64,000 nt of DNA from Yuukianura sp. NJ FZ-2021 (lineage: Eukaryota). The stretch is taken from positions 4,216,001 to 4,280,000 of the forward strand of contig CM102286.1 of the NCBI GenBank assembly GCA_046563655.1, written 5' to 3'. The notes under the pieces are model-generated. The model ran no database searches and was not told the origin of the DNA. It was given only the letters and a program-made list of their open reading frames with translations. Made by a program: the position numbers and the translations under genes. Position 1 is the first letter of the stretch, and every line of letters begins with the position of its first letter. Positions 15,813 to 55,800 of the stretch are shown one piece after another.

Positions 15813-17105
15813 ATTCAGACACCTCCTAAACACCCATTTGAATGTTTTAAATATTCTACTCCACCTCAGCTCTGACTCATCAATAATGAAATACATTGAA
15901 TTCAGCGAATCAATAATATCGTAGAAATTTCTGCACAACAAAAAAGTTCCACCATCAATTTTGAATATTTAACCAACAAATATCATAACATTGTACTAAC
16001 GACATTTCAAAATTAGCAAACTCTCACTCACTGAACGAGAAAATGTGGTTCCAAATGTTAACTTTTTTTGTCTTTATAAAAATCTTTATATGTTCCAGTA
16101 AACTGGATATCTCCCTACTCGACATTTCATCCACGGATAGCCGGAAAAAAATGGACGAAACTAATATATCCAAAGGGACAGAGCTTTGCCCTACCGTTTG
16201 ATGCCCCATGTGCACCCTGTACAAAAGTTGTTCCTATGGACCTCGGGAACTACTGGTTAAATTTTCAGCCAAATCGTGCGGGTCTGTTTAAAATTTGTTT
16301 TAACCATTAATATTTGGAAATGTTAGCCTGTTGCATGTATAATCCTGAATAATAGCCTGAAAGCCATTTTGGAATTGTCAAACTAATTTCTGTTACTAGG
16401 TTTCAGAAAATTTATGAGAGAAGTTTTTTTTTTCGCAACGTACGACATGATACTTTTGTTTTATTCCAAATACGGACTGTCAAATTTCAACTGCCTAGAA
16501 GCGGTTGAAGTTGAAACTGTAACTGTAACTTGATCTTCCTTTTATTTCATTCTTTTTGCAGAACTTTTTTTCTAGATTCAAGTGTGAAATTACATCTTCG
16601 TTATTCTCTATTGCTACGCTCGAGTTTCACAAGTAGAATTTAAACAAAAGTTTTGCTGGAGGAACTTTGGAAAAGGACAGGGACAGTCTATAAACGTTGT
16701 TTCGTCCCTTCTGAGTTCTGTTTTATTCAACATTTGTTCCTGGTTCAATTCCATTACATTTTTGTTCTTTTCGAATGTGAGAATTTTAGCATGCCGTGAA
16801 TGTGTTCTGGTGCCAAAGTTAAGCTTTAGAAGCTAAGCATATTGCTTTCTCCAGTATGAACAGAGGGCATAGGATCACTTGCGTCGTCGTCCCTCCAGAA
16901 CACTGTCGTATTAAAAAGTAAGAATCCAATTTCCTTTTTTCTGTTGCAAACAGGCTCAAGAAATATTTGTACAATTCCCTTATACATTTATTTCTCCCTC
17001 GTCCCCTCGTATGCAGACAGCGTAGAATCAATTTTAAATTAACTTTTTAAAATCATTTCCGCTTTCTTCTCTCTTATTTTAAATTGTGTCTGCAGCAGCA
17101 CCAAG

Positions 17106-20100
17106 ATGCTATTGGTTCTGAGCATCATTTTCGTAACTACTGGCGTAAGTAGCCTTACGCCTGGCCAAGTATCACCACTTCTTAAAACTTGGAACAAAAA
17201 CACGAATTTGGACACTCTGAGCAATTGGGTGGGATTTGAAGAGATCTGCTCCAAGAACATTCTCTCCTTCCCAATGGACATGGATCGAACGGTTATTTCG
17301 ATTCCACCGAATTCTACTATTTCAGCGAAACAAATTATTTTACCACGGAATGGTCACTTGGTATTCCGAGAAGGGAGCACGGCATGGTTCAACTCCCCTT
17401 CGGAGACTTGTCAAGGCGCCGGTGAGTCATTTCTCCCACACTTTTTGACTTGGAAGAATTATGAGGTTGACCTATTGCTCAAGTGCACGGAAAGTCAGAG
17501 CTTAACTTTTGAAAAAAAAAACGAAATTCAACAGTCACATACAACTGACCTCTTTTTTCTCCCCAAAGAGAATCAAACTATTAATCACTTGACCTCAGCG
17601 TGAGATCTAATTGATTGCATTTCAAAAAAAAATTGAAACAAAACATAAAAAAAAAGTTAAGCCAAAATAAGGTATAAAAAAACAAGGGAAACTTTTCCTA
17701 GAATAAAATTTTTTGAAAGATTGTGGCGAATTTGTAAAATTTGAATTTCTTGCATGGAGTTTTAAATAAAAAAAAAACGCTAAATTTTGAAATTTCAGTT
17801 TTTGCCGCGGCTTGCAACTTTCACCCTCATTTCTTTTAAGTTTTAGGTTTATGTTGTCATAAAATTTTCATAAAAGTGAAACGCACTGAGAGTGATGTCG
17901 TGCTCCAACGTCCTAATTTTTTGTTCAATTTTTTTCAGAGCTGAAGTTTCTTCATACTTCCCGCGGCGACTGGTTTGACTTTGGTAATTGGGACGGTAGG
18001 GGTGACAGCCTGTTGAACTCTGGTGGCGTAATTCCTCATGTGGAGCGTGTGCCTTGTCAATACGACTCTGTCCAATTTCCCGCTGAAAGTTCCTACCATT
18101 TGCTCATTTCTTCGGACGTGGTCGTTGCCAAGTTTTTCCTGGGGGAAGAGGTATGTATGTGTCTCATGCTTTCACTGCACGATCCTTCAACTTTCACTTC
18201 AGTCCTCATCGGTATTCTTGAGACACTTTGGGGAAGGCTGGCCTCCGTCGTCAAAAAAGTGTCTGTGCAGAATGACCCTTAACTGGCCCTTTGTAGGCTC
18301 TAATTAAATTCAATGGAAAGTTTATGCACTTAAAATCAAAGACAAACAACTACTTCTTTGGAAAGAGTGGCTAAACTTTTGGCAAAAGAGAAACAAAACT
18401 TTTTGAAAAGAACATATTTATTTGCAGAACTCCTTATTTTCAAAGTTTGGAAATAAAATTGTATTTGCAAATTCTTGTTGCGTAGGAACTCAACTACACG
18501 GCAGTTGCTTTTCTTATGAGCACTCCACTTGGAATAATTCAATTCCGAAAACCAACTGGAACGCAATTCAGTATTGTTGAAAGCAACTGGAGTGACAGCG
18601 ATGACTTCATTTGCAAAAACTATCAATCTCCAATTCGTGAAAAAGTAAGTCGTGAAAAGAGAAAAGTAGAGCAAAAATTTCAGTCTCTATTCAAAATATT
18701 TCAAAACATTTGTCATATTTCTCACTTTGAGCGCAGCAAGCGCGGCAAACGTTTAATTGTGCACAAAAACGTTTTCAAACGCTAGAAAAAATGAAATTTC
18801 ATCGACTACTGCTTTAGGTTTGCAGTTTTGCACGCTGCGTCAACGTTGATGACAAATGTGAAAATCCCGTTATTCCCCACGGTTTCTGCTGTCCCATTTG
18901 TGGTGAGTCAAGCGCTTTCTTTTTTGATTCTAAAAATATTTTTTGCAAGTCCATCATATTGGTCCATGAGTGATGATTTGTCAATTTGAGGTTACCATCT
19001 TAAAATTGAGCATAACGGTGCATTGGTCCTGAAACCTGTCAAGGAGCGTGCCAAAGCCAAAATGGATTCACTCGGCCTGAACAGTTCCAACACTCAGGCG
19101 TACTTTGGTCGCTACGGACGGAAACTTGCTCACATCGTATTCATTCCATGGATGAACAAGACGAAGGACGTGGCTAAACTCGTCGATGAGATTCGGATCT
19201 TCCTCAAAGCGGGTAACAAGGAGTCGTCTTCCACATGATATTGGCCAAGTATCTGTCGAATTCTAGAACTTACAAAGTAGAGAAGCGTTAGGTTTCTGCT
19301 GTGCCCAGGCTTGAATTTCTCGCCACCATCGCTTCAGAATTATGATCGAACACCGCTTTAGAATTCCAAGTTGGAACAAGCAGGGAGACAATGGGGATAT
19401 AAATGCTGTCTTTTTCAATCCATTTGTTTCAATTTTGCAACATACGCACACCTTGAACTTACGAGCTCCAGTTGCCAAATAGCGGCCTCAATTTGGAGAT
19501 TTATGGTAAAACATAAAGTTTAGCAAGGAAAAGCTTACATTACAAAAGGTCAAGTGTTTCTTAACGCTTCAAACTTATAACGCTCCTGCGGGTTAAACGC
19601 ATCATCATAATGCATAATTATTCCAGGGCTCTCTGAGAAGTTTTATGGTAATTTGAAGTCATTTGGAAAACAATAGCTAGAAGTGTGTCACTGGACTAAA
19701 ACTTTTTATAACTTTGCTGTCAATAACTTGTTGATGCTAAAATTAATATGACTAATTACAACAGTTTTACTTTTCATCATACTCAGAACAAAGCTCATTT
19801 CTTAAAAAAAAATAAATGTGATTAAATATAAGTTTAAAAAGCAAAAAGTAATTTAGAAGTTATGAGGAAATACTTGTTTGACAAATCTCAAGTACCAGAA
19901 AAACCGCAAGGACTAATTTATAAGATTCTCAGGAGCTGTACTTATCGATCATGCGAAACATCTCCATCAAGCGGTAACTTACGAAATGGACTACTTTTAA
20001 CAAAGAAAAAATGTTTTGCATGAAAGGCTAGCCATAGGCTTTAGGTTTTTATTTAGGTTTTCAAACCCTGGCACAATACTTTTGAGTTAATCTTTTGCAT

Positions 20101-21207: not shown

Positions 21208-22451
21208 TTAACCCACGCCGGGAATGCCGTTTTGCTGGTTTGGGCTGGTCGCCGCAGTAGCTCCTTGTTGCAGCCCACTACCAACTACAGGAATACTGCC
21301 AGCACCCTGCTGAATTTGTTGGTTACCATTGATTCCACTAGATCCAGGATTCTTTTTGCATTCCGGAGGTGGAGCATCTAGTGCTACACAGGAACGCCCA
21401 GTGCCAGGAAATGCCCCCTCGACACAGTAGAGTCCAGGACAACAGTCACAGTTACAGGCTTGAGCAGAACCCATACACTATGATTTTATTCAATTGTTTG
21501 ACATTTGACAAATTGAAATTGAACTGAAATAGACATTGAAAGTGGCGATCAAGTTTTTACACGCTTAGTGTCTAGTACCTTACCCCATTTGGTTTTTGCG
21601 GCTGCTCGTTGGCTGGCTTTTCCGGCAAAGGTTGTTTGGCCGGTTTTTGGGGTTTACCTGCCGGTTTCTGTGGCTTACCCTCCGGCTTCTGGGGTTTAGC
21701 TCCCGGTTTCTGTGGCTTACCGGCAGGTTGCGGCTTGCCTGCTGGTTTCTGGGGTTTCGAATTTGTGGGTTTTCCATTGTTGGGTTTCTGGGGTTTGTTA
21801 GGCTTTTGTGGCTTACTTGGTTTTTGGGGTTTCGAATTTGAGGGTTTACCGCCGTCAACTACCTGCGCTGGCTTGCTGGGTTTCTGAGGTTTTCCGTTCG
21901 GCTTTGGTTTTCGTTCCTCCGTTTCCGACTCGGTCATTTCCGATTCGTCACTTCGGAACAGCGATACATAAGGACTTCGATGTTTTCCGGATGGCTTGTG
22001 CTTATGGTTTTTTCGCTTTGGTTTCTTGGGTTTCCTGTACTTGGCAGGTTTGCGGTGTTTCTTGCCTCGCGGTGGCTTGACAGTGGTGTTGCTAGGTGCT
22101 GCCGTAACAGCTGTAGTTGCAGCTTCTGTAGTCGCAACGCTCGCCGCTGTCGTCGACTCAAGAAGTCCTTTACATCGTTCTTGGTAAGACTTGCAAAGAT
22201 CTGTAAAGACATAAATACTATTATTTTTCACCACTTTTCAAATACTAGCCGATCAGCTGAAACATAACATACTTACCGCTGGATGGATCGCTTTTACATG
22301 GGCTTTCGGCCGTCGCATCACATGCTAAAGCGGTTGAAGCTGTAGTCACATCCGATAGGGTGCCGCCAACTTCCTCCGAAGATGAACCAACTAAACAACA
22401 TCCCAGAACTGCCAATGCCGCCGCCAACAGTATTACGCTAGACCGCGCCAT
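21208..22451 (-). CDS. Secreted protein: 4-Cys module + Thr/Ala and basic linkers + KPQKP repeats + C-terminal knottin-like 8-Cys domain (exons 22451-22277, 22200-21584, 21477-21208; ~353 aa)
   Basis: Signal MARSSVILLAAALAVLGCCLVG; three exons join in frame via GT-AG introns; last exon CMGSAQACNCDCCPGLYCVEGAFPGTGRSCVALDAPPPEC. Confidence 0.8.
21584..21910 (-). repeat. Coding tandem repeat of (G/N/S)KPQKP units
   Basis: About a dozen KPQKP-type units are visible in the translation of ORF 21572..22234. Confidence 0.9.
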
Positions 22452-25638: not shown

Positions 25639-28255
25639 ATGGCTTCGCTTTCAAGGTAAGTTAAGAATAAGTCAAATGTAGTTAGTTTTATTTAGTATTT
25701 TATTTTTTTAAGCGGGCAAATAAGGGCGGACTACTGTTATCGTTATTTTTCTAGAATTCTTCCCGTACCAACCAACTATATTCGCGACAGAGAAGATGAG
25801 AAGCAATTGGAAAGAAAGTCCACAGCCGTTGTTGCTGTACATCGAGAATCGAAAGCACCACCATACGGAAAACGGAAAGGATGGATCCCAAGAAACGTAG
25901 AGGTACAATTACTTTTACATTAATTAAGAGTTTTTTTTTCTGTACTAACTGATAATGCGTTTGTATTTTAGGATTTCGGCGATGGGGGATCGTTTCCGGA
26001 AATTCCGGTTGCACAGTTTCCACTAGGAATGGGAAAACCAAACGCCGAAGGAAAGAAGACTACCTCAAACGCAGTTGCAGTCCAGCTGGACGCGGAAGGG
26101 AAAGTTAAGTACGATATCCTGGCGCGACAAGGTCACTCTAAGGATAAAGTCGTTTACTCCAAATACACTGACCTTCTTCCTAAGGAGATGAGCAGTGAGG
26201 ACGATCCAGTAAGACTTGATAAACGTTATGAGCCAAGAACCAGACCTTAGATGTTAATTATCGGAACTAAATTCTTATCAAAACGTTTTCAGGAACTTCA
26301 AAAACCAGACGAGGAAGCTATCAAAGAAATCACTGAAAAAACAAGACTGGCGCTTGAGAGGCTGACCCAAAGCAAAGTGCAGGCTGCCATGCCTGTAAGA
26401 TGTGCCGACAAAAAGGTAATCGGTTATCAAGTATTATTGGTTTCGTTGGTAGTTTAATTGTGTTGGTGTTGTTTCATTTGTCATTCCAGGCGGAGGCACA
26501 GTTTATCCGGTACACTCCTTCCCAGCAAGGTGCAAACTTTAATTCGGGAGCTCAACAGCGTGTTATTCGGCTAGTGGAAGTTCAAAAGGATCCAATGTCG
26601 CCGCCTCGCTTCAAGTAAGTTAGGGGCAACATTAAGCCAAGTTGCACAATGTGTGAGAACCTTCTAAGTTTACTATTTTTTTGCAGAATAAATACGAAGA
26701 TTCCAAGAGGACCCCCGTCTCCACCCGCTCCTGTATTGCATTCTCCAACTCGCAAGGTACTGTTCTGATAATTGCGTTAATCTTTGTTTAAAAATGATTT
26801 GCGTCGCTACGAGTTTTTTTCCAAACCAAAGGTTACCGCAAAAGAGCAAAAGGAATGGAAAATTCCGCCGTGTATATCTAACTGGAAGAACGCTAAGGGA
26901 TACACCATTCCTTTGGATAAGCGACTTGCTGCCGATGGGCGAGGACTTCAACAAGTGCATATCAACGAAAACTTTGCTAAGTTAGCTGAAGCCCTTTATA
27001 TTGCTGATAGAAAAGCAAGAGAAGCTGTAGAAATGAGAGCTCAGCTGGAAAAGAAATTGGCTCAAAAAGAGAAGGAGAAGAAGGAGGAGCATTTGAGACA
27101 GCTTGCTGCAAAAGCAAGAGAGGAACGAGCTGGAATTCGGTATCAAGCAAACGCAGGTAATTTTAATTTACCGTGTAACCAACAATCTCGTTCAATTATA
27201 GTTATATGGTTTCATTTCTATTTGATTGAGCAGATAAGGACGAGGATGCCAGAGAGAGGGAACAACTTCGACACGAAAGGCATAAGGAGAGACAACGAGA
27301 TCGAAATATTGCTCGCGCTGCTCCTGATAAACGGAATCGACTCGAACGTGAGCGGGAGAGAGACATCAGTGAGCAAATAGCCCTGGGACTTCCTGCTAAA
27401 ACGATCGGCGGTGGAGAAACACAATTTGACTCCAGATTATTCAATCAGTCTCGCGGAATGGACACCGGGTTTGGAGACGATGAAACATACAATGTTTATG
27501 ACAAGTAAGATTACGGTTACGGAAATACTTGGAACCAATTAAGTTTAAGTTTCGGTACTTCCTTACCTGAAGTCCCAGTCTGGACTGGCGGGACCTCGCA
27601 CAGACTGGGTGGAATGGCTCACCAACCAAGATTGCAGTGTTGCTGGATATCCACTTTTTGACGTGGATATCCAGTGGATAATACATTTCGTCCGGTTTTA
27701 TCTGGAGGAAATGGCTGGATAAAATGGATAGAAATGCATACTTCCGGATACTTCCACCTATTTTAATGTAGGTGGAAGAAATATTTTATCCATTCAGCAA
27801 CACTGCAATAATATCATCTTGAGGTGAAACCTCGCTACTATTGCCTGATCTTTTAGGCCATGGAGACAAGGAGGTGACTTGGCTCAGCAGTTGTACCGTC
27901 CGAAGAAGGGAGGTGACAATGATATCTATGGAGAAGATTTAGAAACTGCTATAAAGACAAACAGGTAACATTTAACTGAAGCAATCAAGACCATACAATT
28001 CTTAATCAAAATTTGTTTTTATTATATCAAAGATTTATCCCGGACAAGGAATTCAGTGGAACTTCGAGAACAGCAGGCTCATCTCGTTCAGGGCCAGTTC
28101 AATTTGAAGCCAACGCTCCAGAGGAAGAGGATCCATTTGGTTTGGATCAGTTCTTGCAACAAGCCAAGAAGTCCGGGAAAAGAGGAGCGGAAGAGAAAAG
28201 TGGTAAAAGTAGCTCTAGCAGCAGTAGCCACGATAAGAGACGTCGACGAGATTGA
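25639..28255 (+). CDS. SNW1: SNW domain-containing protein 1 (SKIP / Bx42 / Prp45 spliceosome factor), multi-exon
   Basis: DFGDGGSFPEIPVAQFPLGMG, QFIRYTPSQQG, IPRGPPSPPAPVLHSP, WKIPPCISNWKNAKGYTIPLDKRLAADGRGLQ, and GPVQFE...DPFGLDQFL. Confidence 0.97.
27635..27805. mobile_element. MITE-like insertion in a SNW1 intron
   Basis: Terminal inverted repeats CAGTGTTGCTG ... CAGCAACACTG (extendable to 15 bp with ATTG/CAAT) around ~150 bp rich in TGGATA/TATCCA motifs. This intron (~350 nt) is far longer than most other SNW1 introns. No clear TSD. Confidence 0.55.
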
Positions 28256-32886: not shown

Positions 32887-35800
32887 TTAGTATCTTCCGT
32901 TTCTTTGTCTTCGCTCCTGAAATACACGCTTCACCTCGTGTATTACGAGACGAATTAAGAACTGCAATTGAAATACGACAAGTTTAAAGTCAATTCGTTG
33001 AGCTTTTGTAAGAAATAACACTGACAACTGAAGAATATTAACTTACAATTAATGCTAAAACGTCACTGATCATCAACATGTAAAAAACGTATTGCCATCC
33101 GAAGGCAGACAATGGTCCAGCTAACAGCGGTCCAACAGCAGCGCCTGAAATGAATTGGCATTGGCAATGCAAAATTTCTAGGTTCATATTATTCATTACT
33201 GCTTTAAGATGGCGCTTACCAATAGACCCAGTGCCATCAATAATTGCTACGACTGTTGCTAAGGCACGAGCGTTTCCCATCAAGCAAGGATGCGTTCCAA
33301 GCTCAGTGGAAATGGAAGTGGTAATGAGGCAATAGGGACCTGTTTTAGTAACAATGTTTTATTAAGTAATTAAAACTATAACAAGAATTGAAAACCTAAT
33401 ATGCATCAACTGTGCAACTTACCGTTGACTAGTAAGCCGACAATTACCAGTAGTACCATATTGGCCCATAATGACTCCGCCCCATAGCTCTGGTAAACTA
33501 ACATCTATTCGAGTATAAGAAAATGATTGAATGAACATTGAAACTCAAGATTATTCACATTATTAAGTATCGTCAGATACTTATAGGGATCGTAATGTCC
33601 GTCTGTCCGTCTGTCTGTCCGTCTGTCCGTCTGTCTGTCCGTCCGTCTGTATACTAGCTACAATATCTCTGGAACCGCTGGACCGATTTTCAATCTGTTT
33701 TTACAGATGAACTTGACATTGTCCAGGGATGATTAATCGGTGTCCAGCTTGACCGGAAGTTGTCCAGGTTCGGGTCAAAGGTCAAGGTCAAATACATTTT
33801 TGACGGAAATCGGGAAAGTCACCCTTATAAAAGTTGTCAGTCTCATCGAGACGAACAACTTTTGTATAGGTGACCTTGACCTCTGACCCGGGGCTCTGGA
33901 GATACAGGCCTTAGAAGTTGCATTATGGCGTGGCTCATGCAATTCGCGTCTATAACTCCAGAACCACTGGACCGATTTTCAATCTGTCTTCGCAGTTGCG
34001 GTTCACATGTACCTGGGGTGTATAAACAGTGTTCAGCTTGACCGGAAGTTGTCCAGGTCCGGGCCAAAGGTCAAGGTCAAGTACTCTATTGACGGATATC
34101 GAAAAAATGACCTCTACAAAAGTTGTGTATCTCATTGTGCTGAACAACTTTTGTAAAGATGACCTTGAGCTTTGATCTACGTTTCCAGAGATACAGACGA
34201 TGGAAGTTGCAAAATGGCGTCCCTCGTCCTAGTCGGGGAAGCATGACCTACTTTATGTTTTCTTCCGAGTCTGGCTGTCTGTCTGTCTGTCCCGTCTGCC
34301 TGTCTGCACAATAATGTCAAAGGTCACGCTCACGGTTATGCTTTCTTTACAATACGGAAACGGATGGACCGACGCGGAAATGGTTTCCGGGGATGGATGT
34401 TTGACGACGCGAGGACTAAAATTCCGAATGTTCTTTGACCTCAAGTGACCTCTAACCATATCAGAGGTCTAGTCACCAATATCCTGCGCGGGAACTTTCT
34501 ATAACTGATCTGACGATACTTATTTACATCGTCTTTGCAAGAAGTTTATTATTCTGAAGTGTTTACATAGCAAGAGTAAATATTTGCTTACCATTGGAAT
34601 GGCTATACCCAGCATTCCAGCACAACAGGAAGCATTCATTCCGGATATGTCTGAAATTGCCCCCGCAATAGTGCCACCAAAAATTCCACCAAAATCAAAC
34701 ATCGTCGATAAATTAGCAGCTTGTTGAGCCGAGAAATTGGCTAATAAAACATAAATCATAAATCAAATATAACAATTGCACTGAACACAACATTTAATAG
34801 ATATAACTTACTACCTCCTTATGTAAAAATACTGCATTTCAAAACCCCACCCTTATACTTACTTGAATTTTGAATGTATCTTGGTAACCAGTAAAGGAAT
34901 GTGTAGCTGACAAGCTTGGCGAAGAAAAGGCACAATGAATATTCAATCACGCCCTATAAGAATTCACATGTCAGTAAAACTTCACTTTCCGAGATACCAA
35001 AATTGAAGATTCGAAGTATAACTTACCGGAATTTTTAAAGCTGCGAAGAATCCTACCGCTTTGATTTTGATTTCCTCGGGCGGAGAAACGATTTCACCCA
35101 AGTGTGAAGTATCGTACGGAAGGTAGGAACTAATTAGCGGCGTGTCGTCAGTTATGTGGTAGTTAGACTGAGAAAAGGTTTTCGACAAAGCTTTTTTATA
35201 CGTTAAGAATATTTGTACTGGTAGTCTCGTATTTTTAGGTGACTAACCTCGGACGAGTCATCTAAGTCCTCACTATCACTGTTGAATCCTGATGTACCGT
35301 GAGAATTTTGGCGGCGAGGTGATGGAACGGAACGGACATCTCTCGCAGACGGCATTGACTGATATGTTCTCCTACTTGACTACGAAAACAAAGTACAATA
35401 TGATATTACTAAATATCAGTAACGCTCGTTTTCGACGTAATTCTGCCGAATATGAAACTGTCGAACCTGCGGTACTGGTTCATTGGATTTTCCATCGTAG
35501 TCAGGAACTGTACATCCGACGTGCTGTGGCTTGGGTACAAGGAATAGGAATACAAAGAACCCTGCTAATCCGATCACCACTCCGGGAACCATGAAGGAGA
35601 GTCCCCAGTTGTACTCCACAAAGGCTCCAGCAATTACAGATCCAAGTATGTTTCCCAATGACGTATGAGAATTCCATAATCCGAAAATCGTTCCTCGTTT
35701 CCCTTTGCCAAACCAATTCGCTACCACCGTCACAACTCCGGGCCACCCTGTTGTCTGAAATAAGCCTGCCATCACCTGAAATGGATTGAAAAATATTTTT

Positions 35801-36621
35801 AGTTCGTCATCTTCCCTGAACCAATCAAGCAAATAATGGTTTGGCGAATAAGTGTAATGCTAACCTGGGCAAATATGAAAAATCCAAGGTTATGAATATT
35901 TTGAAAGTAGCCTAAGCCGAATAGATAAGTGAAGAACCCGGACATGAGCATTCCAAGCGCCAAGAAATAACGCAGATTCACCCTTTCAGCGACGAATCCA
36001 CTACAATACAGACAAAAGAAGAATTAGCAACGAGTTATGTCGAACTGAAGAACTCTGGCAAGGTTCACTTCAAATTTACCTGAAAAACATTCCAATTGCA
36101 TAGGCAAATAAGAATGAAAAGTCCAGTGTTCCAAGTAATGTCTCCGAGTCATCCCCATCTACAGGAAAACACGAAATGAGAAAACGAGGATTAAAAAGAT
36201 GAATAATCAACAATATCAATTATCAAAGCAAAACTAAAGTCTTACCAAAGGGTGCCCAGTTACACCAATTACTTCCCTTGTCTTCCATTCCTGGTGGAGG
36301 TATCAGAGTTGAGCAATTTCGATTTAGGACATTCTTCACAATACTAATGGGTTTCCGTGTCATATGATAGCATGTGTAACTAATAAAGGTGATGAACAGC
36401 ACGGAAAATCGGTACCTGAAATCAACCGTATTAGTTAGTAACGTCAAAATGTTCTTTGCAATTGATGACAACAACATTTTCACCTAATCTTCATTTCAAT
36501 CTTACCAAAAATCTCGTGATGCTTGAGACGGTTTGATAGAACACCAGTCTGAAATCTTCCGAATCAGTCGTACACCCCATGCAATGTCCCGGCGGGTTCG
36601 CATCACTGTGGCCCCTGCCAT
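32887..36621 (-). CDS. SLC37A2: SLC37 family sugar-phosphate/Pi exchanger (SLC37A2-like MFS transporter), multi-exon
   Basis: YTCYHMTRKPISIVKNVL, QTTGWPGVVTVVANWFGKGKRGTIFGLWNSHTSLGNILGS, FFAKLVSYTFLYWLP, NGPYCLITTSISTELGTHP, ALATVVAIIDGTGSIGAAVGPLLAG. The start could be 36621 or 36792. Confidence 0.93.
33564..34522. mobile_element. Non-autonomous HINE/DINE-1-like or MITE element with GTCY microsatellites and a duplicated ~290-bp core, in an SLC37A intron
   Basis: Terminal inverted repeats TAAGTATCGTCAGAT / ATCTGACGATACTTA. (GTCC/GTCT)n tracts at ~33597-33650 and ~34270-34305. Two diverged tandem core copies (~33660-33945 and ~33950-34230) share GAACC.CTGGACCGATTTTCAATCTG and CAGCTTGACCGGAAGTTGTCCAGGT. 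Confidence 0.75.
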
Positions 36622-43326: not shown

Positions 43327-44543
43327 TTAGACTTCCTTGATGCAAATTCCGTATGGACGAATGCTCTTTTCGTTTCGGGTGATCCAGTAATCTCCAATAC
43401 CCCCGAGTTCTGCAGAAGGTATAACCCAAGTGTCATCAGAGTTCACCCGATTTTGAAACACAGTGACGTAGTTTTTGCCGCCAAACTTGAATGGCGTTGC
43501 ATAGCGTTCAGCCACATCAATATCCGGAGTACTGTAAACTCCATGACCAAACTCAAATCGCTTTCCTTTGCTAAATAAGTATCCATCTTCAGCGATTGAT
43601 CTCAAGTTGTGACGACCCGTTCCGTGATAGGACACTAAAAATTACACAAAATTAACTGACAGGTAGTAAAATGGCGACTGCAATGTCATTTCACTGCTTT
43701 TAACTGACTAACCTGGCCACTCTCCTTCGGCTGAGTCAGTGACAATCTCCCTGTTGATCCCGAGCCAAACTGGAGAAATAAATACAGTATCCGTAAGATT
43801 TTTTCAAATTTTTCAAAATTTGAAAAACTCTGAAAGAAGACATTTATTTTGTGAGTTAACGTACCATTGTCGTCGTAACGGTCCAGTACTTTGAGGGCGA
43901 TCCGCGTCCAACCACAAGGTCTGCGATACCTATGTTTCCCACGAGAATACTCCAATGTGTCCTTCACATTTGTGAAGTCGTAGTCAAATTGCTGATCTCG
44001 TAGATTTGGTGACAGGTGAAATGCCGCTGGTTCGCCACCACCTCCTCTAACACTCAAAACGAGCTCAATCGTAGAGGTCGCTGTAACACCGCAGTCTTTC
44101 AAGGTGCGGTAATCTTGCAACTGCATGCCGGAGAATAATAATCTCTGCTCCGTTGGCGGAATTCCTTCCTTGCTCTGCACCTTCACCTTTACGTCCGCAA
44201 CCGTGTCAGTTTCATTGAAGTCCAGAATTATTGTTTTCCCTGTTCTCAACATCTTAATGAAAATGGGGTCACCCTGGCCAAGCTCCGCTTTGTTGGGGAC
44301 GCAACGAACTTCGCCTTTCATTAGTTGAGTAGAAAACAAAGACGATAGGTCAACCGTATCACCATATTGAAGTAAATGTCCTGGAACCGACGTTGGATTA
44401 GCATTAGCAGCCTGTTCTTTGGTGGCGGTGATCTTTGCTTTAGTAATTGCGGACAATGCGGCAGCCAAAAAATCATCGGAGACCCTTTTTAAATCCTGTT
44501 TTTGTTTTTGGGTGGTCTTAACCTTAGATGCGTACACCAGCAT
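43327..44543 (-). CDS. Ubiquitin-like domain fused to an ADP-ribosyltransferase (PARP/NEURL4/Gig2-like)-fold domain (exons 44543-43865, 43769-43713, 43634-43327; ~347 aa)
   Basis: Ub-like IFIKMLRTGKTIILD...DTVADVKVKVQSKEGIPPTEQRLLFSGMQLQDYRTLKDCGV...ELVLSVRGG, followed by FDYDFT...YRRPCGWTRIALKV...WLG...GEWPVSYHGT...FGHGVYSTPDIDVAERYA...VFQNRVN...DYW...IRPYGICIK. Two phase-1 introns join the frames. Confidence 0.85.
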
Positions 44544-47500
44544 CCTGTGCAAATTTTTAAAAAATCGAAAAATTAGATCTTACTAAAACACAAGAGAACT
44601 TGTTTAGTCCATTTACTACTGGTTATGCATTAGGTTAGAGTGGAAAGGTTAAATATCAATTCCAAAATTACAAATCTAAAAAAAACTTACGTAACAAGTA
44701 TCAATGGAATGATTCAGTCAATTATGAAGTTTGTATTTTGGCAGCGAGAATTTGTATTTCTCTCTCGAAGGCGTTTAACAAACTGGATGGATTTAAAAAT
44801 AAATATGGTGGTGGACGTTTATTTCGCTTGGACTATATGACGCTGCGTCTAAGAATACTGACTCAGCACTATTCACACCAGAAATTTAATACGGCTAAAA
44901 CCAGCTCTAAACAAAAATGAACAATGATTTCTGACAAATTGCGATACGAACTACTTGTGCAATGGCGTCTCAATTTATATGCACCAAGGGATCGAAAAAA
45001 GCGAATTTTTATGACACTCCGTTCTATTTGGGCAATTCGGGAATCAGATTTCATTTGATTTAAACCGAGACGTAAATTGAAAGGCCGCGCTTTATCAGAA
45101 AATTTCATCAGCGCATTCGATTTCGAAGTGCTTCTGAACAAAAATTAATTTCCAGAGGAAGCTTACGGCGAAATAGATTTTTTGTAGTTTGAGTCGTAGC
45201 TGTATTTTAAATTTTGTTTGTTTTAATTTCGTACCTCTCTATGAACACATGTATTAATTAACTTAATTAATTAAATTCAGTTATTAAGGAAATTTCAAGA
45301 TGTCCAAAATTCGGATTTTCTTCAAGAAAAATCACACGTTAAGTTGCTCATATAGTCGGCGGGGGCCTTAAGAGCACTTAGAGGACCCCTAATATTTTGT
45401 CCTAAAAACAGTTTAGAATTTTATTAAAACTTACATTTCCCTATGTACTACTTAGCAGGCAACTTGTTTTTTATTGTCAAACCTGCACTGCCTATACCTA
45501 CAGCACGGAAATCAACTTTTTGTTCAAAAAGAAAAACTCAAAGACATCTTTGAAAAAAGAAGTCTTTCATTTCCTTTTGTACCGCTAACAAAAGCTATTT
45601 ATTTTGTTCACCTCCTATCTGCCCTTTCTTGTCAGTCTAAAAATCTAGAAACTTACATTTTTTGGACCTGAAAGACTAGAATACACATGTCCTAATAATT
45701 TATTCCTTGCTCTTGTGTCCAGTGGGAAGACACGAATTGAGTAAGAGTCAGAGAATTGATTGACCCTTTGCTTTCTCCCAGTTGACAAACTGATGCTCAC
45801 ATGAATTATTTAGACAATTGATTACACACGCATTTTTCAAAGTCCAGGTTCTTCAGAGATAGAAGATAAGTACAGCAGAAGAAGAAAGTTTGCTCTCGCT
45901 CAATTGAAAAGAAAGCATTTTCCATGGAGGTTGAACGTGGAATTCTTGGTGGAAGAAAAAGTCTGCTAAATCATTTCTAACGACACAATTATGGTTCCTA
46001 TAGATCATCGTCAGGCGGGATTGAACTGCAGAAGTACGTGGTATCGTGCCTAACCTGTCAAAATTTGTTCGAAGTTGAAGTAGGTCACGTTGGGATGGAT
46101 GAAACTTTAAAACCTTTTGTTAATAGCAATAAGAGATAAAACTGCGGAAGTAAAGAAATGCAGGAAGGATAAATATTTTCTGTGTCTGTTAGGTCTAGGT
46201 GGTTCAACAGGTATAGATTCAACTAATATCTTTGTGGATGCATGAAAAGTTTGTAGATACAAGTTAAACTTAAAAAAAAAATAGTGCATATAGATGAGGA
46301 TGGCAGATTTATTTTAAAGGTCTGAATACTAAATATTTAGGATGCATTGGAACACAAAATCAAGAAATGTTAGGTTAGATTCTAAAGTCGCGATTAAATC
46401 AGAAGAAGATCCCACCAGAGAGGAAAATTCTGAATCCGGTTTTTAAAACAAATATTTGTAAGCTACAACTGCTATTTTAGATTTCTAGATAAACAGTCAG
46501 TCTAGCTTTTGTTAAACAACTTTAAAACAAAGTATCATCAACTGAAAGATTTGGTACATGTGAAACAGTTTTGCTACTGTTTTGGCTCATTTGGACTTTA
46601 TACATAAAATTCTAAAGTTCCAAAAATCCTAAAGCTCTAAAATGCACATTGAAAAAAAAAAGTACTGGTTAAAAATAGTGGGTTTCGTTTGAGTGATTCG
46701 CTTTGGCGTTTAACCCTTTTGAACAACACGGTTTCACATAGAGGTTGATGACAAATGCCGTTTAATTAAAGAAGGAAAATACTTTCTTTGGACCAGGGAA
46801 TCTAGGTAGTTTTACGGGTTTGCTTTCATCCACGTTTGTTGCGTTTCAATATGTACCATTTTTACATAAAATTGTAAAACGTTTGCTTCTATAAGTCCCG
46901 TGAATTACGGTGCTTATTACACGGGAATCCACTTTTGTTCTCTCATCGGTCTCCTTTTCGTTACATACTCTTTCTTGTGCTAAAGGAAGAAGGAACCTGT
47001 TGATTAGAAGAAAATAGACGCGAAGAAGATGAGTAAGAAGTGGGAGGGCTGTGAAAGTTTTTAGCCTCGCAATTTTTTGAACCAAAATTATTATAGCATT
47101 TTAACTGATGCCATAATTTACAGAAACAAGTTTAGTTTACTTAATGATTTAGATCTGGGGAAATTTGAAACTCAAGGTTGACATGTTGCTTAGACGCCTT
47201 GAAAAATGAAAAAAAAAAATGACACTCCAAAGGAGACAAGTGCAGATCAGTAATAGTGGCATAAAGTTCTTTAGTAATCTCATCGCTGAATGACTCTCTG
47301 TTTTGGTTTAGGCCTGAAGTATTTTAAATCTACATTTTGTTATTTATTAAATTTCGTGAAGTCTAAATAATCCGCCGACGAATTGAGAAGCTGGCATTAA
47401 AAACACATTTGTTTGTAATAAAAGCAATGAAATTATCAAGCCGGATCAACGATTTAAAAAAAATTGAAAAATGTATAGGTGAACTGAACACTTTTCAGGT

Positions 47501-49115: not shown

Positions 49116-50502
49116 TTACTTTTCCTTTTTCGAAGAAATGTCGAACTGCACAAGTACAACTGTGTAGGTAATGATGGACGCAAGAATCTAAAAAACGCGG
49201 ACATGTAAATTTTATTCTAAGAAAAACATGTAACTGGACTTACAGCAGTAAGGGTTGATCTACCCAGCCCAAAGTACCCATACGGCGAAATTTTGAAATT
49301 CATGTTCATAACGTATGTTCGCAAATTTAGGACTTCCGTTGTCGCATCCAAGTCATCATGCTCCACTGACACAGTCAGTATAGTCCTCCTCAGCAGTTTC
49401 AACTAATTTTAAAAGAAATTTAAAGAAAAAACCAATTTTATTGGGTTAGCTTTTAAAAAAAAGATTTGAATCAAGAAATCTAAGGTTTACAAACACGACG
49501 CACGCTGTTTTGAAGTAATTCGGAGCCATTGGCAAGTATAATCATTCTAATCCAGATTGAGATGTATCTCGCCATCATTCCTATTAGATAGTCATTGATC
49601 CCGCGAAACGGAATGAAGCCTTCGCATAACTGAAATGTAATGAAACAAAGGAACACCGTTCCGTAGACAACTTGACCAAAAATGATTAGTTGTACAGCCG
49701 ATTCTAGGCTCAAAAATAAATTATCCAGCGCTTTGACATGCTCAAAAAAGTTGGCCTTTTTTTCGTAACAGCGTAATTCGCGGAGGACCATTTCGGCAGC
49801 CGTTGATGGGAAAATCCAACGTGCTTTGGTCGAACCAAGCTCTTCCCGTATTCTTTGTGCAATTACTTTAGCTCTGTGAGCGACTATTTGCATAAATACG
49901 TGGATAATGAACTGAAGAAGCGTAGCCGAAGACCCTAAAAACGCTTGATGCGCCCACGAAAGAATACATACAAGCGAAGGAGTAAGTATTTGCATCGGAA
50001 ACCAGACGATTTTTGATTGATTTTGTAGCCCATATTGTGCAAACTCTTGAATTCTCTGAACGTCGAATCTCCAACTAAACACCCAAGCAGTGAGCACTGC
50101 AAGTTGATCGAACCCACACGAAATGCTACTACTTGTGTACCGCCCTGCCGTGAGTCGCTCAAAAGTTTGAAGTACGCGCCAAGCTTTGATGAAAGTTGGA
50201 ACAGATATAACCCAGAAAATTACAAGAGAGTAGCCAAAAAAAACTGAAGCTACTCTCATGGTTGCTGACGTTTGGTGCTGAAATTCTTGTTCTTGCGTAA
50301 ATGCGTCGTGAAAATACGCAATAGCAATGCTGATTCCGAGTGCAGCGGCAAATACTTGGAATGATATTGACAGAACACACCAAATCCCAGCAAGCGTGAA
50401 CCATTTCAAGGAAATTTGACCTTCGGGGTTCACGTAAATCGGAAATTGGCCTATTATGCGAATGATGTTAAACATCACACGTAGGGCAGAAATATCTTTC
50501 AT
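49116..50502 (-). CDS. Gustatory receptor (7tm chemosensory family), copy A
   Basis: Long first exon with several TMs (IIRIIGQFPI), second exon ...KISPYGYFGLGRSTLTA, last exon ILASIITYTVVLVQFD containing the GR TM7 motif TYhhhhhQF. Confidence 0.88.
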
Positions 50503-51430
50503 GGTTAATTACCAAGAAAAAATGAAACTATTATCATAATAGTAAAGGATAAAAGTAAATTCCTCTTGTATGTTCAAAATATTTAAAAACGCCAAGATTT
50601 GCCTAACACCAGAAAATCCCGAAAATGAATAGCACTAGAAAGTCATTTGTGAACAAATTTTAAGTTTTCTAAAATTTCGATACAACGTATACATTATGTT
50701 CAACATTTTCTACCATTTCCACACCTACTAATCAACGAATTGCAACTGACAAAGGTTCAAGTTTTGTAAGCAAATATGTACTGTAAACATCTACAAAAAA
50801 TATAGTCAACAAAGAATACCCAATTTAATTTGTAAAATTGAAGATTCTTTAATATTCACATTCGATTTATAGATTCGATTAGTTGAGTGTTACGCGTCAC
50901 CAGGGATGGAAACGTTAGCACATGGACCGAAACACTGCTATTCTGTAAAGCATGTCGTACACAAGTAGCAAACCATAACGTTGATTGCTATCTGGCAGTA
51001 ATATGAAGTTAATAATTATTAATTATTAATAAGTTATCTCACAAATTAGTCTACTTAAGTGCTTTTAACGCCTAATTGGCCTATTCAATTTTGGAATAAA
51101 CTGGAGAGCGCAAGAATTTCAGTGGAATTCAATGCTTTTGTTTACAAAAAAATGCATCACGGTTGATATTAGATGCGGGTGAATTTTTTATTTTGGTACG
51201 GCTTTCTGTGTACAGTTTCACTGCAAATATTTCACAAATTAGTGCCAGTTCACAACAAATTTTTGCTCATAGTCACATTCTGACTTCTGTACAAATTCTA
51301 ATAGTCTAATAGGCTTCGCTAGATTGCCAACTGGTTAACTATGTGAGATATATCTGCGCACATCCATAGCACGCAAACATAAAGTTGTTAACCTCGAATC
51401 GCTTCCGACAGCTAATTCCAACTTCAATTC

Positions 51431-52837
51431 TCAGCCAGAAGAAATATCAAACTGGACAAGGACAATTGTGTATGTAATGATTGATGACAGAATCTGCACA
51501 ATTGCAATTATATGGGATATGAGATATTATGTTATACGTTTATACATTAATTGTGTAATATTTTGAAATTTTCTAACACTTACCGCAGTAATAGTTGATC
51601 TTTCCATCGTAAAGTATCCATACGGCGAAATTTTGAAACTCATGTTCATAACGTACGCACGCAAGTTTAAAATTTGCGCTGTCCCATCCGAGTCATCACG
51701 CTCAACCGACACCGATAGTACCGTGCGCCTCAACAACTTCAACTAATTAAGGACAGTTTTATTAGGTTACTGCTGTTTTGGCTAGCCTGGCGTTAGCCTA
51801 GAATTACAAATAATCGTATTCACTATAAAACATACGCTGCTTTGAAGTCGTTCGGCACCGTTCGTAAATATTATCATCCTGACACAAATTACGACGAATC
51901 TTGCCACCAATCCGAGGTGATACTCGTTGAATCCGCGAAACGGCATGAGGCTTCCGCATATAAGAAATGAAAGGATCGACAGGAATAGTGTTCCAAAGAC
52001 GGTTTGACCAAAAACAAGCAATTGTATTGCTGACAGGAGGCTCAGGAATAACTTGTCCAGTGCCTTGACATGCTCAAAAAGTTCGCGCTTTTTGTTATTG
52101 CAGCGCAATTCGCGAGCTACTACTGCTACGGCAGCAGTGTTTGCTTTGAAGTGCCAGCACATTTTGCTTGAGTCCAGGTCGCGGACCCTATTTGCGATTG
52201 CTTTAGCTCTATGTGCGATGATGTACACGAGCAATTGAATAATGAACTGTGTAAGTATAGACGACGTGGTCATAAAAGCCACATGACCCAATGAAATGAT
52301 CTGTGCAAGCGTAGCCGAAAATAATGGCGCCGGAATCCAAGCGAATTCTGTAGGATGTACGAGCACATGCTGTGCAAATGCTTGAACTCTCTGAATTTCA
52401 AATCTCCAGCTAAGTAGCCACACAATGCTCAAAGTAAGTTGGTCACCCTCGCACCAAAAGCTGCTACTTCCATACTTCCCAGAAGTCAACTGCTCAAAAT
52501 GATGAAGTTCTCGCCATACTTTCATGAACTTGGGAGCAGAGATTAGCCAAAAAGAAAGAAGTATGTATGAAATAGAAATGGAAAGTACACGCATGACTGC
52601 TGCCGTTTTTTGCTCGAAATCCTTTCCTTGGACAAAATTGTCCCGAAAGTAAAGGATACCAAAGGCAAACGCCATTACGGCAGCAAACAGATGAACAGGT
52701 ATACATAAAATACACCAAATCCCAGTGACCGTTAACCATTTCATGGAAATTTGACCCTGGGAGGTCACGTAAATCGGAAATTGGCCTATTATGCGAAAAC
52801 AGTTAAATAAAATTCTTAGGTTCAAGATATCCTTCAT
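51431..52837 (-). CDS. Gustatory receptor (7tm chemosensory family), copy B, tandem paralog of copy A
   Basis: Same exon layout; RIIGQFPIYV, EHVKALD.LFLSL, KISPYGYFTMERSTITA, ILSSIITYTIVLVQFD. Confidence 0.88.
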
Positions 52838-55800
52838 GATTAAAAGAAAGAGGATAAAACAAATATGGTTTCAAAGTTTAAGTTTCGACAGTGTTAGAAA
52901 GAATTCGTCAAATTCTTAGCGGTGCGCAAAGTAGTAAACGCTGACTCGAAAAAAAGAAATTATTGTAATTTTTTAGAAAATTGTTTGAACCCGCACTTAT
53001 TCCCGCTTGAAATGCAAAAAGCAAAATGAAACTAGAACTGTGAGCCAATAAACTTAATTTTTTTCCAAACCTTAGAAATAATTTGGTCAAAATCCACTCC
53101 AAGTTTCACACCTCCTAAGAAAGGTGAATGGAAAAGGTAAATTCTTGTAAAGAAACAAACACTTTTTGCAAAGTGAAAAAAAGAAGGAATTGTACAACAA
53201 CAAAAAAACACTTTAATTTGCAAACATTGCATTATCCAGGATTCAGATGGATAAATTAATTGAATATTCCAAAACGAAGTATACGCTGCAACGCTTGAGT
53301 TGAATTAAAGGCTGGCAACTTTCAATTATTATGAATTTCAATGGACATTTAAAACGGAGCAAATCCGAGTAGCAAATGATTAGAAAAGCAATCAATTGCT
53401 AAAAAGCTAACTTTTCGAAAAAAAAAAAAGAACAAGGAATTTCATGATATATTTGAAAATACGTGTGCATTTACATTGTTTAGAATTTTGAAGAAACGTT
53501 TTCTTAGAAAAAGGATAGGCTCTTCTATGCTACTAATTCGTTCATGTTTGTTTGACCACTCGAGCCCCCCTCTCTGGGTTTCTTGGAATGCTTATCCTTT
53601 CCGCCCTTTGTTCCAATTTTAAAAATGTACATTGTTTTAACAACCAGGTAAAATTTTTGAAATTCGAAACTTTTTACCTGCTTATTAGCACCTTTTTCTT
53701 GCTATAAAATCCCCAGTTTTTAAATTTTTCGGCAGTCAGTCTCGCACTGACCGAAGGCCTCTTCAAATGGTCTCTCATCGACTGCTATTCAGCAAGAACA
53801 TGAAAATGTTCCGCAGTTGTTAATTGTCAATAACACTGGGAATTATTTTCATGTTTGACGCTTATGGAACTTCAACACTCTTCTACAACTGCACTAAATT
53901 TAGTAACTACTTGCGCCGGTAGTCATGGGCCACCTTGTCACCGGGTCCTTAGTTGCTAACATTTTTGCAAAAAATCTTCATAAGGTCATTACCAACAAAA
54001 CCACATTTACAACCATTCATTCATACTTTCTGCAGCAGGACTTGAAAATATTCCGCAGTAGTTAGATGAAATTTACACTGGGAAACATCTGCGTTCTATG
54101 AACAATTCCAGCATTTAAATGGTCTAAGTCTAATAATAGTCTAAACGGGAAAATGATTCCATGTTTAACGAGAAACCGCTGTGCTTGATCTGGATTATTT
54201 GTTGCTGAAGATAGAACAAAGAAAGAGAAAGTACAACATCCGCCTGCCTTCTGTTCCGTGGTAATTGATTTGTCATTTGTTTTCTCTGGTTCTTGTTAAA
54301 CAATTCATTAGCACTTTAACTGAACCCACCTTTGTTTTCTGTTTCGATGTTTTGTAATAGTAAGTATGAAACTTTCAAAAGTGAAAAAAATTTTACGAAC
54401 ATTTCAGTTAAGTAATGTAGAATACAAACAGCTCAAACATCCATGGCCGCTGTGATATGAAAAACAGAATGTGATTTCAAATTACATTCCAGAGTCAGAG
54501 TCCGACTAAGCTCTCAACTTCAAGCTTCCATTTCTTTTTTTAAGTTTCAACTGATAAACATAAAGTTGTGAAAGTTTTTTGCCATTTGTATGTCAGAGTT
54601 GCTTGGATGTTTGGCAAGACAGTTGACAGCTAAATTCGGAAGATGTACAAAAATATTACAAGTGTTTCTGGAAGTATATGAATAAGTGGCTCTCCTCTGT
54701 AGAAGGAGACTGATGTTTACATTTGACCACATATATCACTCAACGTCATCAATCAAGCTCAGATGGAAGTAACAACTTCAAACGAACACGAAGTTATTCA
54801 CTTCTATTAATAATTCACAATGTTCTTAGAACTTAAGCATTCCGTGGGAACGGACGCTTCTTTCAAACCGAGTTTTCTGTAAGACAGACTCCAAGTCAGC
54901 GCTAACTTGCAATTTACCACACCCGAAGTTTTTTACATAAACAGTTCCTATTTGATTTCGGGACTCGAAAGTGTCATTTCTTCAAAATGTAACTACCAAT
55001 GCAAGTGTTTTTCTGATACTTTGCCAAAACTTATGATTTTCCGTAGTTCATATTAGTTTCAAGTTGTAAGTTGCGGATTGTTATAATAAATTTTGGTTTT
55101 TGGCTATTAGTTTAATCCAAGCTAATTTTTTGATATGTAAACATCATTAACAGCGACAGAAAAATCCGAAGTGCTGCAGCTACTTCTTGTCACTCTCACT
55201 GAAAAGATAAAACTTCAGGTTTTGAAAAGGCTCAAAATTCCTTATGATTTACGGCTTTATAAATAAAAAATATTCTGAAACTGCTTCTGCTCATTCTTAT
55301 TTTTGGTTAACTTTAACTAGTCACGTCAAACATTACATCTTTCGCCGCAAGTGCTTTACGTGTACAATTCTTATAGCAAAAAAAAATCACAATGTAGGAA
55401 CATTTTAGAACATTTTTGAAGTTTGTGAGCATCATGCAATGTAAAATGTTAATTTTCAAAGCTTACCTTGACATTTTATAACCATTATTTCCTGAATTCC
55501 GCAACACAAACAGGATCCACGTAATGAAAACGAAATCGATATATGGTACATGATAGCAGAAATTACTTTTCTAATATAATACTTTATTATAAATAAAAAA
55601 TCAACTACAAGGATAGAATTTTTTGCCTTCAAATGTTGCAATTGCTTGGTACTCGCAGGGCACTAATGTATTTAGCAACCACCCGTCGAGGCATCGTTAG
55701 CTAATGGTACAACTAAGGCTAAAGTAATGAAATAAGGGCTCAATGTTGGATGTTAAAAACGAAGGCATGTTGAGATTCCCGCTGAGAAGAAAATGGCTAA

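Follow-up and report, generated by a model that had tools for sequence, protein, structure and literature searches.

The window analysed here is a stretch of 64,000 nucleotides (nt) from Yuukianura sp. NJ FZ-2021 (assembly GCA_046563655.1, contig CM102286.1, positions 4,216,001 to 4,280,000). On its minus strand lies a three-exon gene whose predicted product joins an N-terminal helical module, a ubiquitin domain with an intact di-glycine (di-Gly) and, directly behind it, a domain that very probably has the ADP-ribosyltransferase (ART) fold. The gene, its exons and introns, and the parts of its product are located in the window as follows.

44543..43327, minus strand: gene with three exons, 347 amino acids, coding sequence of 1044 nt, GT..AG introns

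43865..44543, minus strand: coding exon 1, beginning with the ATG at 44543, 226 codons plus 1 nt

43770..43864, minus strand: intron 1, 95 nt, GTACGT...CCAG, phase 1, guanine-cytosine content (GC) 0.26

43713..43769, minus strand: coding exon 2, 57 nt, VWLGINREIVTDSAEGEWP, in which W228, L229, G230 and W244 are conserved

43635..43712, minus strand: intron 2, 78 nt, GTTAGT...TTAG, phase 1, GC 0.33

43327..43634, minus strand: coding exon 3 including the stop codon (TAA, 43329-43327), encoding the ART core

44316..44471, minus strand: N-terminal helical module, amino acids 25-76, FLAAALSAITK...LSSLFSTQLMKG

44040..44264, minus strand: ubiquitin domain, amino acids 94-168, which ends LVLSVRGG, then GG

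43330..43997, minus strand: PARP-like ART domain, amino acids 183-347, split by both introns

Within exon 3, minus strand: ART residues H249 (SYHGT), Y279 (GVYSTP), Y290 (RYA), QNR 306-308, D327 (GDYW) and RPYG 338-341

Exon 1 encodes the N-terminal module, the ubiquitin domain and the first third of the ART domain, and an in-frame stop lies upstream of the ATG at 44543. The exon joins are a predicted gene model that is based on the splice motifs and on full-length relatives which span both junctions collinearly (e.g., P0043 from Rhizophagus, ..DKYENNIWLG..NEWPVSYHGT..); the residues that flank the junctions, W228, W244 and H249, are each present in 141 of the 141 relatives aligned. The first-pass annotation of this DNA had proposed a gene with introns, and the spliced open frame, the canonical splice sites and the collinear relatives bear this out. 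Among the columns of the family alignment, the window protein keeps all 42 that are conserved at a level of at least 90% and 70 of the 76 conserved at a level of at least 75%, and because of this retention the gene appears to be an intact, selectively maintained member of the family and not a decaying copy. A chance open reading frame (ORF) or a pseudogene was also considered, and was ruled out by the conservation across the 141 relatives and by the same complete set of near-invariant columns. No second copy was found within the window when the spliced protein was searched against it by tblastn. Upstream of the ATG, at 44583-44700 on the minus strand, there are a donor-like GTAAGT and an acceptor-like TTTTAG, and a TATAAA-like box lies at about 44970-44985; together they suggest that the gene may have an intron in its 5' untranslated region.

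The ubiquitin domain was found at exactly the place (about 44264-44040) where the first-pass annotation had put a ubiquitin-like domain ending in LVLSVRGG. The Pfam ubiquitin family (PF00240) matches amino acids 94-165 with an E-value of 2.5e-23 and a score of 82.1 bits, which lies above the curated cut-off (25.4 bits), and the last strand is followed by the Gly-Gly (LVLSVRGG, amino acids 161-168). The same annotation had described this part as N-terminal, with an intact di-Gly; the di-Gly is borne out but the N-terminal position is not, since 93 residues that include a conserved module precede the ubiquitin. Single Pfam scans matched ubiquitin in 129 of the 141 relatives; the two di-Gly positions are kept in 110 and 112 of them, most have the whole LRLRGG tail, and an alignment with ubiquitin units and relatives gives LVLRLRGG(G) as the norm of the family. 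In a structural model of P0043 the ubiquitin domain superposes on ubiquitin with a Z-score of 16 and a root-mean-square deviation (rmsd) of 0.5-2 A. The domain of the window protein, about 55% identical to ubiquitin, falls outside ubiquitin proper when this is defined by an LRLRGG tail together with Lys48. Because its tail is altered and the Lys48 position is lost, efficient activation by E1, conjugation and chain formation seem less likely for the window copy than for its fungal relatives, whereas its cleavage is still plausible.

The ART part consists of about 165 residues after the di-Gly, which are 50-58% identical to many proteins from elsewhere and contain the near-invariant family motifs FDYDFT, RPCGW, WLG, EWPVSYHGT, GxYSTP, YA, QNRV, (E/D)YW and RPYG; the motifs noticed at first reading (YHGT, GVYSTP, YA, GDYW and IRPYG) are all present in the spliced protein. 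When exon 3 was searched alone, its Pfam matches were below threshold and all to ART families (DUF3990 0.0048, PARP 0.067, ART-PolyVal 0.12), and against PDB sequences PARP16 was matched at about 0.9. The profile of the full family was dominated by ubiquitin in the PDB search. An ART-only profile (A2), built from eight relatives without ubiquitin, matched PARP13/ZAP (4.4e-4), PARP16 (0.015) and PARP10 (0.019); its matches to exotoxin A and cholix toxin were weak. Single Pfam scans of the 141 relatives recorded PARP at E <= 0.01 in 69 and DUF3990 in 21. The gathering score of PARP (PF00644, 26.7 bits) is exceeded by P0087 (27.9), P0236 (29.2), P0355 (30.1) and P0253 (28.3); exon 3 of the window, which covers part of the domain only, reaches 13.1 and full-length P0043 reaches 18.4. 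In a protein-language-model atlas, PARP accounted for 25 of the 30 named clusters that resemble the ART part of P0043 (score 0.96), and an atlas search from which the ubiquitin and PARP clusters were excluded gave no usable match.

Structures were modelled for relatives of the window protein. The model of P0043 (full length, 87-row alignment) has a predicted local distance difference test score (pLDDT) of 84, and its fold searches returned ubiquitin rows only. The model of P0190, which consists of the N-terminal module and the ART domain with no ubiquitin between them (141-row alignment, pLDDT 79, predicted template-modelling score 0.77), was compared by VIA with about 48,000 PDB representatives, and the best 17 of 50 rows were all of PARP type, with Z 5.6-7.4 and 112-156 aligned residues. 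They comprise PARP16 (Z 7.4, rmsd 4.7, 149 residues aligned), PARP4 (7.4), PARP10 and PARP13 (7.2), PARP1 and PARP3 (7.1) and, further, RCD1, the tankyrases, PARP2, PARP15 and TASOR (Z 5.6). Behind them, with Z 3-4, come other ARTs such as diphtheria toxin, cholix toxin, exotoxin A, Arr and pertussis toxin. Foldseek placed PARP3, PARP16, PARP4, PARP10, PARP12 and PARP13 first, with E >= 1.7e-3 and template-modelling scores of 0.2-0.33. Taken singly, these scores are middling. Since, however, the profile searches, the language-model atlas and both structural aligners point the same way, the clear reading is that the C-terminal domain is predicted to adopt an ART fold of the PARP/diphtheria-toxin type. 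An ART fold after RGG had been proposed from the start, and now that the profile and structure searches of relatives have returned PARP-type domains we have little doubt that the window protein belongs to an ART-fold family.

The positions expected to carry catalysis are strongly conserved in the family: the histidine is present in 141 of the 141 relatives, the first tyrosine in 139 and the second in 127. The third position, which was assigned by the order of the motifs and the layout of PARP1, is glutamate in 96, aspartate in 30, asparagine in four and glutamine in three. The window protein has H249, Y279 and D327 and thus shows the H-Y-[EDQ] triad, a definition of the clade that admits aspartate or glutamine according to the excerpt available of PMC7955679. 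The first-pass annotation had remarked that an aspartate replaces the catalytic glutamate; the replacement itself stands (D327 in GDYW), but it does not mark this copy as defective, and because 30 of the 141 relatives share it, the aspartate appears to be an ordinary state of the family and by itself no argument for inactivity. In PARPs the catalytic glutamate has been linked to chain elongation (PMC8932523, in the part available), and because the window protein has an aspartate at this place, mono-ADP-ribosylation is a safer guess for its predicted activity than the formation of chains. That the domain is instead a catalytically dead pseudo-enzyme which only binds, like PARP13 or TASOR, might be argued from the aspartate in place of the usual glutamate, from the inactive PARP13 as the best PDB sequence match and from TASOR among the structural matches. 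We consider this improbable, given that the histidine and both tyrosines of the NAD+ site are each kept in at least 127 of the 141 relatives, that the aspartate is recurrent and lies within the H-Y-[EDQ] definition, and that no near-invariant column has been lost from the window protein.

The N-terminal module comprises about 50 residues ahead of the ubiquitin, a motif with the consensus LLxAALSAxxG and some 40 further residues. It is present in about 130 of the 141 aligned relatives, in which L26 is kept in 103, A29 in 98 and S31 in 99, and it was modelled with high confidence both with ubiquitin (P0043, residues 1-50, block pLDDT 75-94, including blocks of 94, 93, 84 and 88) and without it (P0190, residues 1-30, block pLDDT 78-90, with blocks of 88, 90 and 78). 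P0190 may be a natural form that lacks ubiquitin or a gene model with a skipped exon. In its structural search the alignments to PARP16, PARP4 and PARP1 begin at the first residue of the model, and on this ground the module may be structurally part of the ART domain, which hints that it sits where PARPs have a helical domain packed against their catalytic core. If ubiquitin is inserted within one structural unit in this way, the product of a cleavage behind it would be a two-piece enzyme.

The family to which the gene belongs is very large. Out of 1.84 billion cluster representatives, the ART-only profile retrieved 2655 at E <= 0.001, of which 1437 have E <= 1e-10 and 468 have E <= 1e-30, and the best 150 of that search were all close family members. 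Ubiquitin was found in 17 of the 18 long representatives scanned. Some members carry tandem ubiquitins before the ART domain (four in P0321, five in P0348), WWE domains are appended in P0253 and P0293 (ubiquitin-ART-WWE), and among the members with other extra parts, which include P0238 and P0258, are ubiquitin-ART with three kinase-domain matches and WW-ubiquitin-ART. WWE domains have been tied to both ADP-ribosylation and ubiquitination (PMC4245714, in the part available). As annotated, these contexts link the family to the reading of ADP-ribose through WWE and to polyubiquitin-like precursors, and the arrangement of N-terminal module, ubiquitin and ART appears, from the relatives examined, to be the standard form of a very large and patchily distributed eukaryotic family.

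Ubiquitin fusions are generally cut after Gly-Gly, as in the products of the ubiquitin-ribosomal-protein and polyubiquitin genes, and built-in ubiquitin-like domains usually lose the di-Gly. The best overall explanation of the window gene, which we hold with reasonable but by no means firm confidence, is that it encodes a ubiquitin-fusion precursor which carries an N-terminal module, is cut by deubiquitinases (DUBs) and ends in a PARP-like ART domain with the triad H249-Y279-D327. The ubiquitin unit would make the protein such a precursor, and DUBs would cut it after Gly168; the products would not be free ubiquitin and ART, but the N-terminal module joined to a ubiquitin with a free di-Gly, potentially conjugatable, and a free ART domain. 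The latter would bind NAD+ through the histidine and the two tyrosines and transfer single ADP-ribose units, and in this manner the gene would couple ubiquitin signalling to ADP-ribosylation; the first-pass annotation had also put forward a possible stress or antiviral function. For the cleavage step itself the chances seem evenly balanced; it is favoured, by analogy with known precursors, because the di-Gly is retained in most relatives and because members with four or five tandem ubiquitins exist.

Several points weigh against this explanation. The tail of the window ubiquitin reads LSVRGG, with two departures from LRLRGG, and methionine stands in place of Lys48. The structures modelled are those of relatives that are 39-58% identical to the window protein, and the structural scores are middling (Z < 8, and no Foldseek row at E <= 0.001). 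A search of the literature found no demonstrated activity for any member of the family and no experiment on one of its ubiquitin-ART fusions, and an earlier description may exist in a 2012 Mol Biosyst paper. Finally, judging from the models, a cut after the Gly-Gly would split one structural unit, so that ubiquitin could also be an uncleaved built-in domain. In that case it would be a permanent internal part, set between the ART core and a helical lid at the N-terminus and serving for interaction or regulation, and the enzyme would work as one chain, e.g., by docking on ubiquitin receptors or by regulating its own active site. The wide conservation of the N-terminal module, its confident modelling whether or not ubiquitin is present, the existence of P0190, the PARP16, PARP4 and PARP1 rows that start at its first residue, and the altered tail and methionine of the window copy all fit such a permanent domain. 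We nevertheless regard it as a doubtful alternative, because the relatives have kept their Gly-Gly, mostly within a complete LRLRGG, where built-in domains usually lose it, and because the members with tandem ubiquitins resemble precursors.

The precursor explanation invites comparison with known systems. Polyubiquitin, ubiquitin-eL40 and ubiquitin-eS31 are alike in that a unit ending in RGG is followed directly by another polypeptide, and the eL40 and eS31 fusions were among the PDB matches of the full-family profile; the window protein is unlike them in its internal ubiquitin, which comes after 93 residues that contain the conserved module and is only about 55% identical to ubiquitin itself. 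On the ART side, the best sequence-profile and structural matches are PARPs of the mono-ART type (PARP16, PARP10, PARP13/ZAP, PARP4). PARPs and the window family both show H-x-T, G-x-Y and Y-A motifs, and in both the fifth strand bears an acidic residue, but they are only 8-19% identical, the window protein and most of its relatives remain below the Pfam PARP gathering score, and the family has invariant motifs of its own (FDYDFT, RPCGW, WLG, EWPVSYHGT, QNRV, RPYG), with aspartate for glutamate in the window protein. De Souza and Aravind are said to have noted ubiquitin fusions in the NEURL4-type family as early as 2012. Among described kinds, the NEURL4-type ART comes closest to the window family; it was predicted in 2012 (de Souza & Aravind) to be an H-Y-E[D-Q] domain that lies outside Pfam, and was reported to ADP-ribosylate mitochondrial proteins (Cardamone et al. 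2022), both according to the part available of PMC8932523. By description, it resembles the window family in being a divergent eukaryotic H-Y-E[D-Q] ART missed by Pfam (excerpts of PMC8932523 and PMC7955679); in the latter excerpt the NEURL4-ART set was seeded with residues 102-275 of a short protein, a position that fits an ART domain behind an N-terminal ubiquitin. NEURL4 itself differs in having six neuralized repeats and no ubiquitin. The Gig2 proteins of fishes and amphibians, compared here by description only, are small, show very weak similarity to the PARP signature and have undergone lineage-specific expansions, but they have a C-terminal domain of their own and no ubiquitin and are reported to be restricted to non-amniote vertebrates (PMC3617106, in the part available). 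A broad survey of PARPs (PMC4245714) reports many links between PARPs and the ubiquitin system, and a fusion of the two is not among them in the portion available.

The distribution of the relatives bears on the origin of the gene. Among the 120 matches listed for exon 3, 45 are named, namely 31 Glomeromycota, 8 bdelloid rotifers, 3 Dictyostelium and 3 Hydra, and the matches listed for exon 1 add ascomycetes (Cenococcum, Hyaloscypha, Elaphomyces) and the coral Acropora. No named arthropod relative occurs among the matches listed for either exon, and the protein of the window is itself absent from the protein database searched; the absence of named insect proteins from these matches agrees with the earlier remark that the architecture lies outside the standard insect set. 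Viral contigs gave 16 pattern matches, none of them a relative. Metagenome contigs contributed 79 loci (L001-L079), whose overall identity to the window protein is about 49% at most, and many of them encode residues 22-347 in one uninterrupted frame, representing either intron-less genes or transcripts; since the pattern used for the scan spans the site of intron 2, these loci cannot inform on the conservation of that intron. The window gene is a divergent member, and apparently the only one from an arthropod, of a large family known so far from computational work.

The surroundings of the gene are those of an animal genome. An exon of Amnionless (PF14828) lies at 17043-17603 and one of SNW/SKIP (PF02731) at 26781-27380, both on the plus strand, and an exon of a major facilitator superfamily transporter at 35416-35859 on the minus strand. 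The best ordinary matches of the SNW exon are arthropods with 94-98% identity (stick insect, cockroach and bugs, and the springtail Orchesella with 94%). The window is therefore animal DNA, and a fungal contamination of the assembly, which had been considered, is ruled out by the animal genes in the same window. The gene has a GC of 0.466 and a GC at third codon positions (GC3) of 0.47, slightly above that of neighbouring ORFs (GC3 0.34-0.46); its introns share the AT-richness of the DNA around them. Two further regions of the window were recorded. Two tandem paralogous ORFs on the minus strand, at 49480-50508 (342 amino acids) and 51782-52870 (362 amino acids), resemble multi-pass membrane proteins; Pfam gave no match at E <= 0.01 for either, and they may be a lineage-specific receptor pair. 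An ORF at 21572-22237, also on the minus strand, is rich in repeats of the KPQKP type, of low complexity and with the look of a secreted or structural protein.

In phylogenetic trees the window protein forms a long branch, with a length of 0.83 in a FastTree reconstruction of 147 rows and of 0.75 in an IQ-TREE reconstruction of 52 rows under a mixture model. The larger tree omits five named proteins, three of them longer than 450 amino acids (814, 696 and 767) and two with incomplete coverage of the ART domain, and the smaller one comprises hand-chosen representatives from which P0190 was excluded. No strongly supported clade contains the window protein, which is joined only by other long, unnamed rows; measured by path length, it lies closest to Rhizophagus, Gigaspora and Paraglomus. 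In approximately unbiased (AU) tests, a constraint that groups it with a 12-row clade of Glomeromycota raised the log-likelihood by 1.9 over that of the free tree (p-AU 0.572), and one that groups it with the copies of rotifers and Hydra changed the log-likelihood by -10.0 relative to the free tree and was not rejected (p-AU 0.203). Two relatives, P0023 and P0033, the latter near-identical to P0043, turn into unrelated sequence right after ..EWPG, and these breaks, as read from the alignment, suggest a read-through of a phase-1 intron at the site of intron 2 of the window gene, which would then be an old, shared intron.

A horizontal transfer, in which a Glomeromycota-like fungus or some other eukaryote of the soil passed a gene with introns to the lineage, where it then adapted to the host genome, might account for the predominance of Glomeromycota and the lack of arthropods among the named exon 3 matches listed, for the nearest rows by path length, for the slightly better score of the Glomeromycota constraint and for the break of P0033 at the position of intron 2. 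Against it stand the long, unplaced branch outside any strongly supported clade, the grouping with rotifers and Hydra that was not rejected, a best identity of only 50-58%, by which no recent donor has been sampled, the GC3 and the short AT-rich introns, which are unremarkable beside those of the neighbours, and the flanking animal genes (Amnionless and SNW1). The spread over Amoebozoa, fungi and animals, together with the shared intron position, would fit an ancient descent with many losses equally well. A transfer from a Glomeromycota-like donor is hence possible, and we give it a minority share of our belief. A bolder combination, which we consider a long shot, would have a fungal-type conflict or stress module come from arbuscular-mycorrhizal fungi that share the arthropod's habitat and the DUB cut yield a two-piece enzyme, in which the conjugated ubiquitin with its regulatory lid recruits the ART domain to ubiquitin-marked targets, because the lid binds the core, or, alternatively, the cut relieves the core of inhibition.

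Crosstalk between ubiquitination and ADP-ribosylation is established in several settings, among them ligases with WWE domains, PARP9/DTX3L and the SidE enzymes of Legionella. In the family described here, ubiquitin and ADP-ribosyltransferase parts are written into one polypeptide, in thousands of members. The family had been noticed computationally before, and what is new is an arthropod member of the ubiquitin-ART kind, which adds a type of ART outside the usual list of insect PARPs and constitutes a candidate for gene transfer from another eukaryote to an animal in a soil arthropod. If the ubiquitin-ART fusion is indeed cleavable, it would provide a simple way to release or to target an ADP-ribosyltransferase.

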